Source of the DNA: a virus
Virus genome (UHGV): UHGV-0199997
Direction: 5' to 3' (one strand)
Length of the DNA: 43,953 nt
The notes under the pieces: model-generated
Seen by the model: only the letters and a program-made list of their open reading frames with translations
What the model was told of the DNA's origin: nothing
The model's database searches: none
Translations under genes and position numbers: made by a program
In this document: piece after piece, positions 9,142 to 26,700 of the stretch
How the letters are laid out: every line of letters starts with the position of its first letter
Position numbering within the stretch: position 1 is the stretch's first letter

Positions 9142-9653
9142 CTGGTAAATTTCCTCGCAAGATACGTTATTTCTTCTTCACAAAGTTCATCAAGGTCATT
9201 TGACACAAATCCTCTGGTGAATGTTTTGCTGAACTTTAAGCCCGCTTTATCATTGTCACCGGCGCACACCCATTCATACGGCAAAAGTGACATTTGCTGC
9301 CGTAAGTCCGCTGGTATGTTCGACCCCAATGCGCTAACTGCATTAAACCCGCAATTCATCAAAGCAACAGCTTTAAATATGCTTTCGGTAACAAATACCA
9401 CCCCGCTACTCGGCAAATACTCAAGTCCCCATAAACACGGCCTTGTTGTTCGGGTATAGTACCGCGCGTCTTTATGGTTCTTGCAGTTCTTTTCGGCGTG
9501 TGGTTTGTAGTGCTGGTACCCGCGAAGCCTACCGTCAAATCCCCACAGGTAAAACGTAGCTACTCCAGGGCCTAAGACTACACGTAAACGGTCCGCGTCA
9601 AAACCTCGTGACAGCAGATGTGCCTTAAGTAGTAACTCCTCGCTGCCCATCAT
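9138..9653 (-). CDS. TOPRIM-domain primase-like protein
   Basis: TOPRIM signature: conserved Glu in FVTESIF and DxD in CAGDNDKAG; ATGA overlap with the helicase stop. Confidence 0.6.
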   Translation of the reverse strand: MMGSEELLLKAHLLSRGFDADRLRVVLGPGVATFYLWGFDGRLRGYQHYKPHAEKNCKNHKDARYYTRTTRPCLWGLEYLPSSGVVFVTESIFKAVALMNCGFNAVSALGSNIPADLRQQMSLLPYEWVCAGDNDKAGLKFSKTFTRGFVSNDLDELCEEEITYLARKFTR

Positions 9654-11074
9654 TTCTTACCTCGTCTCTTCATGTAGTTAAGCAACTCTTCCTGCACCGA
9701 TTTCTTCTCATCAGTACGCGCGGCAACAACCTCGTCAAGAGTGTCTTTGGCAACGATATGATAGAGGAACACCGGGCGCTCGTGGCCTGCCTGTTTCTGG
9801 CGGACTGGGCCTATGCGCTCGACAACCTGCAAATAGTGCTCAAGGTTCCACCCTGGCGAAATAAACGCCAGATGATGCCCGCCGTCCTGTAAATTGAGGC
9901 CGTGGCCCGCCGACGCAGGATGCACGCATAAGATTTCGATTTCGCCGCGGTTCCACGCTTCCATCTGCTTATTACCCTTAGCGCCTTTGGCGAACGCCTG
10001 CGCCTGCGGGAATCGTTTAAGGATGCGCTCCAGTTCATGCTTGAACTGATAGGCGACTAGCAACGGTGCACCCTGCAACTCTTCCACAATGGACTCCAGT
10101 GCGTCCAGTTTCGTGTCGTGCACTTTCTCCCAGTCTTTCGTTGCTTCGCCGTCCGGCCCTGACACATACACGGCACCGGATGCAATCTGAAGGCACTTAG
10201 ATGTCTTCGCCGCCGCGTTAGCCGCTTCAACTTCCCCGCTCTCCAGCTCCGCGAATAGCTTCTCCTCCATATCGATGTACGCCTGACGTGCTTTCTTCGG
10301 CAGGTCGATTTCAACCGGTACGATAATCGGCGCTTCACATCCGAACCACTCGGCGGCGTCAATCGTGAGACTAATGTCCTTCATCTTCTGGTGAATCTCG
10401 GTATCCGCCCCCGGGCGGGCATGGTACTCGCGTGCCATCGCCGACTTACCTTTCTGTACCGAGTTAAACCAGCGGTCTGTGAATGCCGTGTATGAAGACC
10501 CCAAGCGCTCTCCTGCGTCGATAAACCAGTTCTGGCCCCACAAGTCCTTGAGGCCGTTCGGTGATGGTGTGCCAGTCAGGTTGATAAAACGCTTAACCTT
10601 ACCGAAAGCAACCTTGCTAAGAGCCTTTGCGCGCTTGCTTCCACCTGAACGGCTGCGGAACGATTTAAGCTTCGTGCTTTCATCGGCAACGATAACCGTA
10701 AAAGGCCAGTCGTCTTTGCCGTAGTAGTCAATCAGCCACTCGATAACTTCGTAGTTTGTGCACACCACGTTAGCGTCTGACTCCAGTGCCGCGATGCGAC
10801 GCCTCTCGCTACCTGTTGCATCTACGACACTCAGGCATGGAAATCGCCATTTCTCTTGTTCTGCGGGCCATGTGCCGGATGCGACGCGCAACGGAGCGAG
10901 GATTAACACGCGGTCGTCGTCCGTAAGCTGCCCGTTGCGGAACAGTCTGTTTAACGTCCACAGTACGCTGCCAGTCTTCCCGGCACCCATGCTTGCCCAT
11001 ATGTTGCAGCGATGGTGCCGCAACATGAACGAGGTAATGAGCTTCTGGTACTCGCGCCTTTGAAACTTACTCAT
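9650..11074 (-). CDS. SNF2/DEAD-like superfamily II helicase
   Basis: Walker A in ASMGAGKTGS, DEAH-type box in IVADESTKLK, C-terminal helicase motifs. Confidence 0.85.
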   Translation of the reverse strand: MSKFQRREYQKLITSFMLRHHRCNIWASMGAGKTGSVLWTLNRLFRNGQLTDDDRVLILAPLRVASGTWPAEQEKWRFPCLSVVDATGSERRRIAALESDANVVCTNYEVIEWLIDYYGKDDWPFTVIVADESTKLKSFRSRSGGSKRAKALSKVAFGKVKRFINLTGTPSPNGLKDLWGQNWFIDAGERLGSSYTAFTDRWFNSVQKGKSAMAREYHARPGADTEIHQKMKDISLTIDAAEWFGCEAPIIVPVEIDLPKKARQAYIDMEEKLFAELESGEVEAANAAAKTSKCLQIASGAVYVSGPDGEATKDWEKVHDTKLDALESIVEELQGAPLLVAYQFKHELERILKRFPQAQAFAKGAKGNKQMEAWNRGEIEILCVHPASAGHGLNLQDGGHHLAFISPGWNLEHYLQVVERIGPVRQKQAGHERPVFLYHIVAKDTLDEVVAARTDEKKSVQEELLNYMKRRGKK

Positions 11075-11903
11075 TTACAGCCCCCATGAACGCCTTTATA
11101 AATTCAGCGGCTACTTGCGGGACGATGGCATTGCCGTAACCGCGCAATCGTCCCACTCTGGCGGGTATCCCATTAGCCAGCGGGAATGTGCCGGGTTCAA
11201 CTGGCCGGAACTTTCCATCCCTGCATCCGAGCCAGTCAGCATCCGACCAGAAGCTGCGATTCGGATTGCCCCCACGAGGTAGCATTGATTGTGCAGATTG
11301 TTCGGGTCTCTTTTTGTTTCCGCCTCGCTGTAGCTGCCGTGACGCGAATTCTGAACCGTCGGCGTCCCCCATGCCGCTTTCAGTCCCTGCTCTGTTGAGT
11401 AGTCCAGCCTGTCGAATGTTCTGTCCTTCCCGTCCTTGCGAATCACTGTCTCTCCGCTCCCTTTGTGATCGTTCGCTGTCGGTGTCGGCCAGTTGGTACG
11501 CACCAAAGAAGAGTCGTTCTCTTTTATGCGGAGCGCCGACGCTACAAGCTGGGAGTACGGCAAACCCGACGGCGTAGTCTTCTCCTTCCAGGTGAGTTTG
11601 TAAATCGCACATCCACGATTTTGCAATTGCTGGCGCAACCTGTTCCCCAAAGAGGACTGGAGGGTGGCACTCGCTGATGAGGTCGAGGAAGACTGGCGCG
11701 AGGTGTCTCGGGTCGAACTGTCCGAGTTGTTTTCCTGCCGCGCTAAACGGTTGGCAAGGCGGGCTTCCCGTCCAGAGAGGCGTATCTTCCGAAACTCCCG
11801 CAAGTCTGAGCGCGAGAGGCCAGCCGCCGATGCCAGCGAAAAAAATGACACTGGGTGAACCCGTCAAGGTCTTCTGGCTTAACTTCGGTAATGCTTCTTT
11901 CAT
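11067..11903 (-). CDS. DNA (cytosine-5)-methyltransferase, frame-disrupted
   Basis: This frame carries motif I (FFAGIGGW), motif IV (PPCQPFSAAGK), ENV-like (FGEQV), motif VIII (PHKRERLFF) and motif X (GYGNAIVPQV); the target-recognition region and motif IX lie in an overlapping frame (11111-11851) and the N-terminus in a third frame (11743-11991). Confidence 0.65.
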   Translation of the reverse strand: MKEALPKLSQKTLTGSPSVIFFAGIGGWPLALRLAGVSEDTPLWTGSPPCQPFSAAGKQLGQFDPRHLAPVFLDLISECHPPVLFGEQVAPAIAKSWMCDLQTHLEGEDYAVGFAVLPACSVGAPHKRERLFFGAYQLADTDSERSQRERRDSDSQGREGQNIRQAGLLNRAGTESGMGDADGSEFASRQLQRGGNKKRPEQSAQSMLPRGGNPNRSFWSDADWLGCRDGKFRPVEPGTFPLANGIPARVGRLRGYGNAIVPQVAAEFIKAFMGAVNE

Positions 11904-11991
11904 CTACAACTCCAAAAGGTATGTGACCCTGTTTTATTAATTCACGCAGCCACGCGGCTGCACCTTTATCCCATTCATTGTAATAGTTCAT
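11743..11991 (-). CDS. N-terminal segment of the methyltransferase in an alternate frame
   Basis: ATG 11991 overlaps the TGA of the upstream 63-aa gene (ATGA); reads ...KPEDLDGFTQCHFF and would continue into AGIGGW if the A7 run at 11839-11845 were one base shorter. Confidence 0.4.
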   Translation of the reverse strand: MNYYNEWDKGAAAWLRELIKQGHIPFGVVDERSITEVKPEDLDGFTQCHFFRWHRRLASRAQTCGSFGRYASLDGKPALPTV

Positions 11992-12179
11992 TTGGCCACC
12001 AGAACTAACTCTTTACGCCCGAACGCCGTAACGTTACCTGTTACGTCTTCGATAACCAGTTTGCCGTTCGACTCTACGAACACTGTATCAACGGCAACAG
12101 GACGACGGGTCTTAACGTTGAAAATCATGTCGCCCGGTACGATGTCACGTGCTGGTTTGCGGTCATATTCGTGTTTCAT
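11988..12179 (-). CDS. hypothetical protein (63 aa)
   Basis: ORF with RBS AAGGAATTGAG before the ATG; lies upstream of and is coupled to the methyltransferase N-terminal frame. Confidence 0.5.
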   Translation of the reverse strand: MKHEYDRKPARDIVPGDMIFNVKTRRPVAVDTVFVESNGKLVIEDVTGNVTAFGRKELVLVAK

Positions 12180-26456: not shown

Positions 26457-26669
26457 TGGACGAATACGAAGGTGTTTAGTATTCTGGTTAGGCCAAGTTT
26501 TTCGTATTTGCTAATGGAGGCCGATATGGCACTGCAAGAGTTCACCAACCCTGTTAAATCGCGCGACGATATTGACGAGTCTGTCGGTTACGGCGAAGGT
26601 TGACACCTAAGACTAATCCGACGATACTTAAATCACCTCCTGTTCCATCCCTCTACTCTCCAGTTTTAT

Positions 26670-26700
26670 CCCGGCCCTGACCTAGCCGGGATTTTTTTTA
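26670..26700 (+). terminator. rho-independent terminator
   Basis: CCCGGC-N9-GCCGGG hairpin followed by a T8 run. Confidence 0.7.

Follow-up and report, generated by a model that had tools for sequence, protein, structure and literature searches.

A phage cytosine methyltransferase locus that probably comprises two fully nested subunit genes of the M.EcoHK31I kind and carries a one-base homopolymer insertion

The DNA cytosine-5 (C5) methylases consist of a large domain, which contains most of the conserved motifs (I to VIII plus X), and a small domain, which contains the variable region plus motif IX (PMC3404938). In M.AquI of Agmenellum quadruplicatum the enzyme is divided between two consecutive open reading frames (ORFs), of which alpha supplies motifs I to VIII with part of the variable region and beta supplies the remainder together with motifs IX and X (PMC3404938). 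M.EcoHK31I of E. coli is also a two-polypeptide C5 methylase, and its beta subunit is encoded entirely within the alpha gene in another reading frame; alpha has motifs I to VIII and X, beta has motif IX, and both polypeptides are required (PMC3404938, PMC2836561). Silent removal of the beta start codons abolishes the activity of M.EcoHK31I, and the N-terminal residues of its beta are progressively dispensable (PMC3404938, PMC2836561). Here we describe a methylase locus at positions 11067 to 11991, on the minus strand, of the virus genome UHGV-0199997 (43,953 nt, the whole of which is called the window below). We consider it quite probable, from the arrangement of the motifs and the pattern of substitution among homologues, that this locus specifies a heterodimeric C5 methylase of the M.EcoHK31I kind by means of two fully nested genes, and that it carries a single homopolymer +1 indel.

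An earlier note on this DNA, made from the letters alone, had described a C5 methyltransferase whose motifs are divided among reading frames, and this description was borne out. All of the strings that it quoted are present on the minus strand where it had placed them, including the ATGA that couples ATG 11991 to the gene upstream; the motifs do lie in different frames; and the ORF at 11067-11903 matches PF00145 (59.4 bits against a cut-off of 22, E=5e-16). Judged by its motifs and by this match, the locus is a C5 DNA cytosine methyltransferase. We use X for the N-terminal piece from ATG 11991 to the T-run, Y for the frame with motifs I, IV, VI, VIII and X (ORF 11067-11903, 278 aa), and Z for the +1 frame, in which the W-x-T-P strings and RWLMGYPPEW occur (ORF 11111-11851, 246 aa). 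X reads MNYYNEW...KPEDLDGFTQCHFF as far as a run of seven T residues (A7 on the plus strand). One base fewer at this run, as the note had foreseen, joins the N-terminal segment to motif I: upon deletion of one T, X and Y together give a protein of 307 aa (alpha), and ATG 11903 comes into frame with Z to give a protein of 263 aa (beta) whose gene is nested wholly inside that of alpha (11991 to 11067). The features of the locus are as follows.

11067..11991, minus strand: entire locus, corresponding to the alpha gene (307 aa) if T6 is assumed; intact equivalents of 274-309 aa in K1G, Golestan and ZCEC5
11839..11991, minus strand: alpha N-terminal segment, 51 codons, MNYYNEWDKGAAAWLRELI...CHFF; residues 1-51 are 100% identical to Golestan
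11839..11845, minus strand: T7 homopolymer (A7 on the plus strand) in the His-Phe-Phe codons; T6 in relatives
11067..11840, minus strand: alpha body, as sequenced within ORF 11067-11903, which begins at the beta ATG; PF00145, phrog_363, M.HhaI motifs IV-VIII
11820-11840, minus strand: alpha motif I, FAGIGGW
11742-11762, minus strand: alpha motif IV, PPCQPFS, with the catalytic Cys
11637-11651, minus strand: alpha motif VI, FGEQV, an ENV-like variant
11505-11531, minus strand: alpha motif VIII, PHKRERLFF
about 11253-11504, minus strand: alpha linker, non-conserved and of low complexity, ~85 residues
11205-11252, minus strand: alpha segment after the linker, FWSDADWLGCRDGKFR
11112-11150, minus strand: alpha motif X, RLRGYGNAIVPQV (including GYGNAIVP)
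11901..11913, minus strand: beta translation start, with GGAG at 11910-11913, a 6-nt spacer and ATG at 11901-11903, inside alpha codons 27-31
11111..11851, minus strand: beta body, +1 frame relative to alpha; phrog_1008, selection signature in the Z frame
11636-11662, minus strand: beta LQSSLGNRL
11528-11605, minus strand: beta IYKLTWKEKTTPSGLPYSQLVASALR
11384-11491, minus strand: beta variable module WPTPTANDHKGSGETVIRKDGKDRTFDRLDYSTEQG (WPTPTANDHKG...)
11351-11371, minus strand: beta variable module WGTPTVQ
11150-11206, minus strand: beta block matching motif IX, GQLNPAHSRWLMGYPPEWD (containing LNPAHSRWLMGYPPEW)

Because the C5 methylases are divided into a large and a small domain, Y can be read as the large-domain chain and Z as the small-domain chain. 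In the model that we propose, alpha would be translated from ATG 11991 and would form the catalytic large domain that binds S-adenosylmethionine (AdoMet), with the N-terminal YYNE.D segment, motifs I, IV, VI and VIII and, beyond the linker, a conserved C-terminal part that ends in motif X. Beta would be translated independently, from its own Shine-Dalgarno (SD) sequence and ATG (11903), inside alpha and in the +1 frame. The first ~60 residues of beta would be a non-conserved read-through of the alpha motif I-IV region, and its conserved part would be the small-domain equivalent, composed of a helix-hairpin element, variable W-x-T-P modules and motif IX; the W-x-T-P modules probably serve in target recognition. 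The alpha linker would then be the other-frame translation of the beta recognition modules, and the two chains would assemble into an active enzyme, as was shown experimentally for M.EcoHK31I. It is by analogy with that enzyme that we infer formation of the heterodimer; target recognition would reside in beta.

The likeness to M.EcoHK31I is one of architecture according to the published descriptions, with motifs I to VIII and X in alpha and motif IX in a nested beta, and the dispensable beta N-terminus of M.EcoHK31I is paralleled by the ~60 non-conserved residues at the start of the phage beta. M.EcoHK31I, however, belongs to a restriction-modification system (YGGCCR), whereas the phage gene, flanked by a small ORF and a helicase gene, is an orphan. 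M.AquI resembles the phage locus in being a natural two-subunit C5 methylase that is split in the variable region, but in the phage motif X is retained by alpha, and the beta gene lies entirely within that of alpha. The monomeric C5 methylases (M.HhaI, M.HaeIII, Dcm; PF00145) follow the same large/small domain logic, and M.HhaI aligns to alpha at motifs IV-VIII. Unlike in these enzymes, the small domain of the phage methylase would be on a separate chain in the other frame, motif IX is not on the alpha polypeptide, GEQV replaces ENV, and a motif II-like YYNEWD precedes motif I. The N-terminal segment (YYNE.D..AA.WLR.L) is the best-conserved part of alpha, with column identities of 0.9-1.0 and a variable third position. 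Within it, the highly conserved YYNEWDKGAAAWL at 11935-11985 (alpha residues 3-19) resembles the motif II region of M.HhaI (SNEWDKYA) and yet lies ahead of motif I, which suggests a permuted order of the AdoMet-binding elements, although the alignment with M.HhaI is not statistically significant. A published description of the nested alpha/beta design was found only for M.EcoHK31I, and the design is rarely recognised; searches of the literature on overlapping or frameshifted phage cytosine methylases and on Kagunavirus methylases yielded no description of a phage methylase with a nested two-frame architecture. The original study of M.EcoHK31I is reportedly that of Lee, Kam and Shaw in 1995.

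The nested layout was found to be widely conserved. In 70 of the 72 viral loci in which both motif sets were detectable (79 were examined), motif IX (WLMG[YF]P) lies in the +1 frame with respect to that of motifs I, IV and X, and the two frames are open from end to end; the same layout is present in 68 of 72 such loci from bacterial genomes (80 examined, across Proteobacteria, Desulfovibrio, Verrucomicrobia and others). The total is thus 138 of 144 loci, down to about 33% identity, and a conventional single-frame relative was found neither among the 79 viral nor among the 80 bacterial loci. In a distant prophage homologue, with 48% identity in Z, a 370-aa Y ORF has a 297-aa Z ORF nested in its +1 frame, and the Z frame is open also in relatives that are annotated as intact (K1G, Golestan, ZCEC5). 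The earlier note had supposed a single enzyme of about 308 aa in need of three frame corrections; two of these, near 11490-11500 and 11140-11160, turn out to be the normal condition of intact relatives.

The few exceptions to the layout are indel variants. Motifs IV and IX are in one frame in L154:2568-3765 (Erwinia tracheiphila), L209:2712-3714 and P0067, where an alpha N-terminus is fused to the beta frame; the fused part extends through motif IV in L154 and L209 and to about motif VI in P0067. At the DNA level, which was checked for L154 and L209, the remainder of alpha proved to have kept its own reading frame open in both. All three could be frameshift mutants or assembly errors. Other departures concern length: in L053:1169-2924 both frames are open for ~500-585 codons with no motif X within 150 nt after motif IX, and P0220 (479 aa) has an insertion of ~170 aa between RPVE and the motif X region. 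The long beta-type proteins have Dam or PD-(D/E)XK domains and no PF00145. The beta-type ORFs P0247 (497 aa) and P0252 (758 aa) run in frame into a Dam N6-adenine methylase (PF05869) and a DUF2800/PD-(D/E)XK nuclease; these may be genuine fusions, or else ORF calls that run on into the gene that follows.

Selection on the two frames was examined in a codon alignment of 60 distinct sequences, taken from 65 loci that passed a pre-filter for an open Y. The values below (p1/p2/p3) are mean pairwise nucleotide identities at codon positions 1, 2 and 3 of Y (alpha), where Y position 1 is Z position 3; all blocks are on the minus strand, in order from the alpha start.

X through motif IV:.74/.78/.44; amino-acid identity.71 in Y and.36 in Z, the same as in the control frame; only Y selected
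Motif VI-VIII block (Z: IYKLTWK..TPSG..L.AS.R): mixed by column; both frames selected
Variable region: lowest at Y position 1; the W-x-T-P columns show the Z pattern, and the Y peptide is unalignable and of low complexity
WL.CRDGK.R block: Y-type; Y selected
Motif IX block:.78/.95/.94; amino-acid identity.94 in Z; Z selected
Motif X block RLRGYGNAIVPQV:.79/.87/.58; Y selected

Motifs I, IV, VI, VIII and X of the alpha frame are nearly invariant in the 60 homologues, and variation at the third position of alpha is seen at both ends of the gene and not in the linker. The WPTPTAND..DRLDY module has identities of.97/.98/.73 at Z codon positions 1, 2 and 3, with amino-acid identity of.97 in Z versus.74 in Y. 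In the motif VI-VIII block, Y-type columns (Y326, G339, A340, R344, R346) interleave with Z-type columns (317, 321, 335, 337, 338), and the interleaved conserved residues span about 35 codons. At two places the same nucleotides are conserved in both frames, namely, at motif VIII/LTWK..TPSG and at WL.CRDGK.R of alpha, where beta has ML.TGSDAGM. Because conserved residues of both frames reside on shared nucleotides, a single translation pass would not suffice to produce them, which argues for two products.

The distribution of stop codons leads to the same conclusion. Over ~75 non-conserved codons (motifs I-VI), the Z frame has one stop in the 60 sequences as against 123 in the +2 frame; shuffling of Y-synonymous codons predicts 0.42 Z stops per sequence, which is an underestimate. 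Conversely, over ~98 non-conserved codons of the variable region, the Y frame has no stop, compared with 2.1 per sequence expected from a Z-synonymous shuffle and 4.0 in the third frame, in a set that was, however, pre-filtered for an open Y. This double openness is far beyond chance. Since each frame is free of stops where its own peptide is not conserved, two full-length translations are indicated rather than a hopping ribosome. Contrary to the earlier note, the openness does not extend to all three frames: that of the N-terminal segment runs into a stop at 11743 and has about 2-4 stops per segment in relatives, and only two frames are open throughout. A programmed frameshift gene was also considered as a candidate and was rejected, because both frames are open from end to end and the conserved residues interleave.

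The ATG and GGAG of beta are identical in all of the close relatives. An in-ORF ATG of the +1 frame within 120 nt upstream of motif I is present in 53 of 56 homologues (29 in the control frame), and an SD-like site 4-11 nt upstream of a beta-frame ATG is present in 41 of the 56, compared with 4 of 56 for the control frame. The beta start takes two recurrent forms. Kagunavirus has GGAGTTGTAGATG; elsewhere the form is AGGAGCAT.GAGGATG, in which AGG/AGC codons specify the Arg-Ser of alpha. The beta body as sequenced in the window is preceded in its own frame only by a GTG at 11851, which lacks an SD sequence. The ~60 N-terminal residues of beta are not conserved, whereas its motif IX fits the consensus L.P.....LMG[FY]P..[FW] and has ~94% amino-acid identity across homologues under beta-frame selection; an example of a beta-frame peptide is TFDRLDYSTEQGLK. 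A search with Z returned 2440 homologous proteins, nearly all of them without any Pfam domain, and the Z profile matches 16,978 representatives of 50%-identity clusters at E<=1e-3 and 5,959 at E<=1e-30. In PHROGs, Y and Z are assigned to different families, phrog_363 and phrog_1008, respectively.

One alternative, proposed in the earlier note as slippage-dependent expression, is that a single full-length methylase is made through ribosomal or transcriptional frame changes at three sites. An alpha to beta to alpha hop does assemble the motifs in the order I-VIII, variable region, IX, X, and the first hop site is the T7 run, which is also a U UUU UUU heptamer. Such hopping, however, could not read the conserved residues that share nucleotides in one pass, would have no need for the stop-free non-conserved stretches of alpha (~98 codons) and beta (~75 codons), and does not explain why beta has its own ATG and SD; moreover, the frame is unbroken at the first site in relatives, the other two junctions showed no conserved slippery site, and the hopped chimera matches PF00145 no better (61.2 versus 58.7 bits). 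We think that this alternative is very improbable and that the overlapping conserved residues reflect two nested genes. The note had also raised the possibility of a decaying pseudogene, which here would have three independent frameshift lesions. No ORF as sequenced holds all of the motifs, and the NCBI Prokaryotic Genome Annotation Pipeline (PGAP) labels the E. coli prophage homologues as two partial pseudogenes; yet in these prophage copies both ORFs are open (400 and 334 aa), two of the three "lesions" are common to about 140 divergent loci with purifying selection in both frames, and the bodies of both genes in the window are intact, at 92-95% identity to the nearest intact relative. A pseudogene in this sense is extremely unlikely.

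It might also be argued that constraint on alpha, or on the DNA or RNA itself, conserves the +1 frame as a by-product, so that there is no beta protein and alpha alone is the enzyme. In favour of this view, beta has no match in Pfam, NCBIfam or PDB searches, and its predicted structure is mostly of low confidence. In contrast, substitutions in the variable region and motif IX concentrate at the third codon position of beta while the alpha peptide diverges; stops are avoided in the +1 frame only, not in +2; the enrichment of start signals favours a real beta; and an enzyme of alpha alone would have neither motif IX nor a conserved recognition region. The by-product explanation is thus highly doubtful. 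Several points nevertheless weigh against the nested heterodimer. Translation of beta in this phage and association of the two chains are predicted from the sequence, and the beta block is named motif IX on the strength of a matching pattern; profile searches against Pfam and PDB detected motif IX or motif X in neither frame, and searches with beta and with the frame-hopped chimera (Pfam, NCBIfam and PDB) did not detect them either. AlphaFold2 gave models of low confidence, with a predicted local distance difference test (pLDDT) score of 38.6 for alpha (28 sequences) and 52.9 for beta (49-sequence alignment), the latter confident only at residues 58-106, and the assignment of domains consequently rests on motifs and literature. 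The proposed kinship with M.EcoHK31I relies on the described layout of that enzyme and not on its sequence, and among the matches of the alpha homology search, all of them close relatives from phages, none bears the name M.EcoHK31I. In addition, the literature puts the predicted recognition domain of M.EcoHK31I in alpha, whereas the variable-region modules are here in beta. Lastly, neither subunit is intact in the window as sequenced.

This last point is due to the T-run, the only one of the three frame changes in the earlier note that breaks the frame relative to every intact relative. When the intact 309-aa Golestan methylase was compared with the window by tblastn, the alignment was split at the T-run only and then continued in a single frame to the stop, through the poorly conserved middle; this alignment, of the sort that the note had recommended, placed one break and showed none at the other two sites. 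The relatives K1G, Golestan, ZCEC5 and EcoPhCCP1 and 14 IMG/VR contigs (18 close loci) read CAT TTT TTC GCT, that is, T6. The exact T6 context is present in 40 IMG/VR contigs and the T7C allele in none, and all methylase-context matches in a metagenome scan were T6. The tract is positioned downstream of the beta ATG (11903) and upstream of motif I (11840), so that T7 swaps the 5' ends of the two genes. As sequenced, the alpha start leads through X into 31 out-of-frame residues and a stop at 11743 (the 82-aa ORF 11743-11991), and the beta start leads through MKEALPKL...VIF into the alpha body, which gives a 278-aa product without the 51-aa alpha N-terminus. The enzyme is predicted to be off in this state, barring a sequencing error at the extra T or its loss by slippage.

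The same extra base at the His-Phe-Phe tract, with the same ORF layout, was found in an independent IMG/VR contig, L009 (IMGVR_UViG_3300045988_021324, 1361-2186). Its T8 corresponds to the T7 of the window plus a C>T change that is synonymous in the new frame; the contig is otherwise clean, and its recognition cassette is of the short K1G type, unlike that of the window. The extra base of L009 may have arisen as a recurrent artefact or at a mutational hotspot, or may be an allele that the two genomes have in common, and its presence raises the chance that the window carries a real, possibly recurrent or inherited, allele.

The T7 itself is a candidate for sequencing error, null mutation or slippage site, while homopolymer error fails as an explanation of the other two, conserved shifts. 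We lean slightly toward a real allele. That T7 is a sequencing or assembly error, and that the phage truly has T6 with an intact alpha/beta pair, is a serious possibility that we hold to be somewhat short of even: homopolymer length is the commonest type of residual error, the exact context is T6 in 40 of 40 IMG/VR contigs and 18 of 18 close loci, and both gene bodies are otherwise undamaged. On the other hand, when 80 ORFs of EcoPhCCP1, the nearest genome, were mapped on the window, no further frame split was seen. The window has two homopolymers of at least 7 nt, of which T7 is the sole coding one and the other is the T8 of an intergenic terminator; no homopolymer error was found elsewhere in the window, and its nine 6-nt runs are all undisturbed. 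The cleanness of the window elsewhere implies that the assembly was not error-prone, and L009 carries the same extra base together with the C>T change. The terminator, at 26661-26699, consists of a GC-rich hairpin (CCCGGC...GCCGGG) followed by T8 and is of the typical intrinsic form.

Some methylase genes, for example Type III mod, are phase-variable under the control of homopolymers. One could envision that the extra T, seen in two independent phage genomes, sets a mutational switch to a heritable OFF state, or to a low-ON state that depends on slippage. As in Type III mod, altering a homopolymer in the coding sequence by one base would be enough to turn the enzyme off, and since the T-tract is located between the beta start codon and the catalytic body of alpha, one change of plus or minus one base would disable or restore both subunits together. 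A +1 ribosomal shift at UUU C, or transcriptional slippage that drops one U, would likewise restore both products; nothing, however, supports efficient slippage at a 7-nt run. Unlike the tracts of phase-variable loci, this one is essentially invariant, is short and encodes a conserved His-Phe-Phe, and there was no evidence for its programmed variation, with T6 in ~70 sequences and the +1 form in two (the window and L009). We think that the switch is unlikely. If it were true, the phage would toggle 5-methylcytosine according to whether its hosts have classical or methylation-dependent (Mcr-type) restriction.

The genome is that of a Kagunavirus-like (Guernseyvirinae) siphophage of E. coli, with ~90% identity overall to known genomes and 95.8% identity to phage EcoPhCCP1 at the methylase locus. 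The ATG of alpha at 11991 overlaps the TGA of the upstream 63-aa ORF (11988-12179) as ATGA, and the end of alpha, with its stop codon, shares 8 nt with the beginning of the SNF2-type helicase gene (9650-11074). The remaining neighbour is a 94-aa ORF, relatives of which are annotated as Holliday junction resolvase or VRR-NUC protein. No linked cognate restriction endonuclease was found among the neighbours; the methylase is thus an orphan, which presumably serves this lytic phage in countering restriction. In a Kagunavirus relative, two methylase-annotated genes are among the phage genes transcribed during infection, a result that concerns transcription only (PMC12645636).

A comparison of 11253-11504 with K1G (L003), Golestan (L004), P0224 and P0034 showed that the window has the long form of the W-x-T-P cassette and K1G the short one. 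Such cassette differences within genes that are otherwise ~95% identical suggest a modular exchange of specificity.

The annotation of these loci varies from record to record: alpha only, beta only, both as unexplained overlapping genes, or two partial pseudogenes. In the GenBank record of EcoPhCCP1 only the beta-frame ORF is annotated as a methyltransferase, and in that of K1G the Z ORF is ORF30, labelled "Mte8-like", a label that we treat as a lead only; the literature searched for "Mte8" contained no description of a nested architecture. In L085:3017-4219 and L086, E. coli lambdoid prophages near cmoA/yecN, PGAP calls two partial "DNA cytosine methyltransferase" pseudogenes; the layout is conserved in them, and the alpha ORF (400 aa) and the nested beta ORF (334 aa) of this type of locus are those noted above as open. 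The locus in the window should be annotated as two overlapping coding sequences, alpha and beta, with a note on the frameshift, and neither as a pseudogene nor as a single gene.

By its architecture, the window would provide a phage-borne orphan example of an already known kind, that of M.EcoHK31I, whose family is apparently very large; the alpha search alone gave at least 8,000 scored candidates, and orphan cytosine methylases of the nested design appear to form a very large class in phages and prophages. A same-strand nested overlap of ~790 nt is unusually long for a double-stranded DNA phage, and it has a clear structural logic, in that the unconstrained linker of one gene is the variable recognition module of the other. 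The nested layout could thereby make specificity cassettes exchangeable while leaving the catalytic domain untouched.

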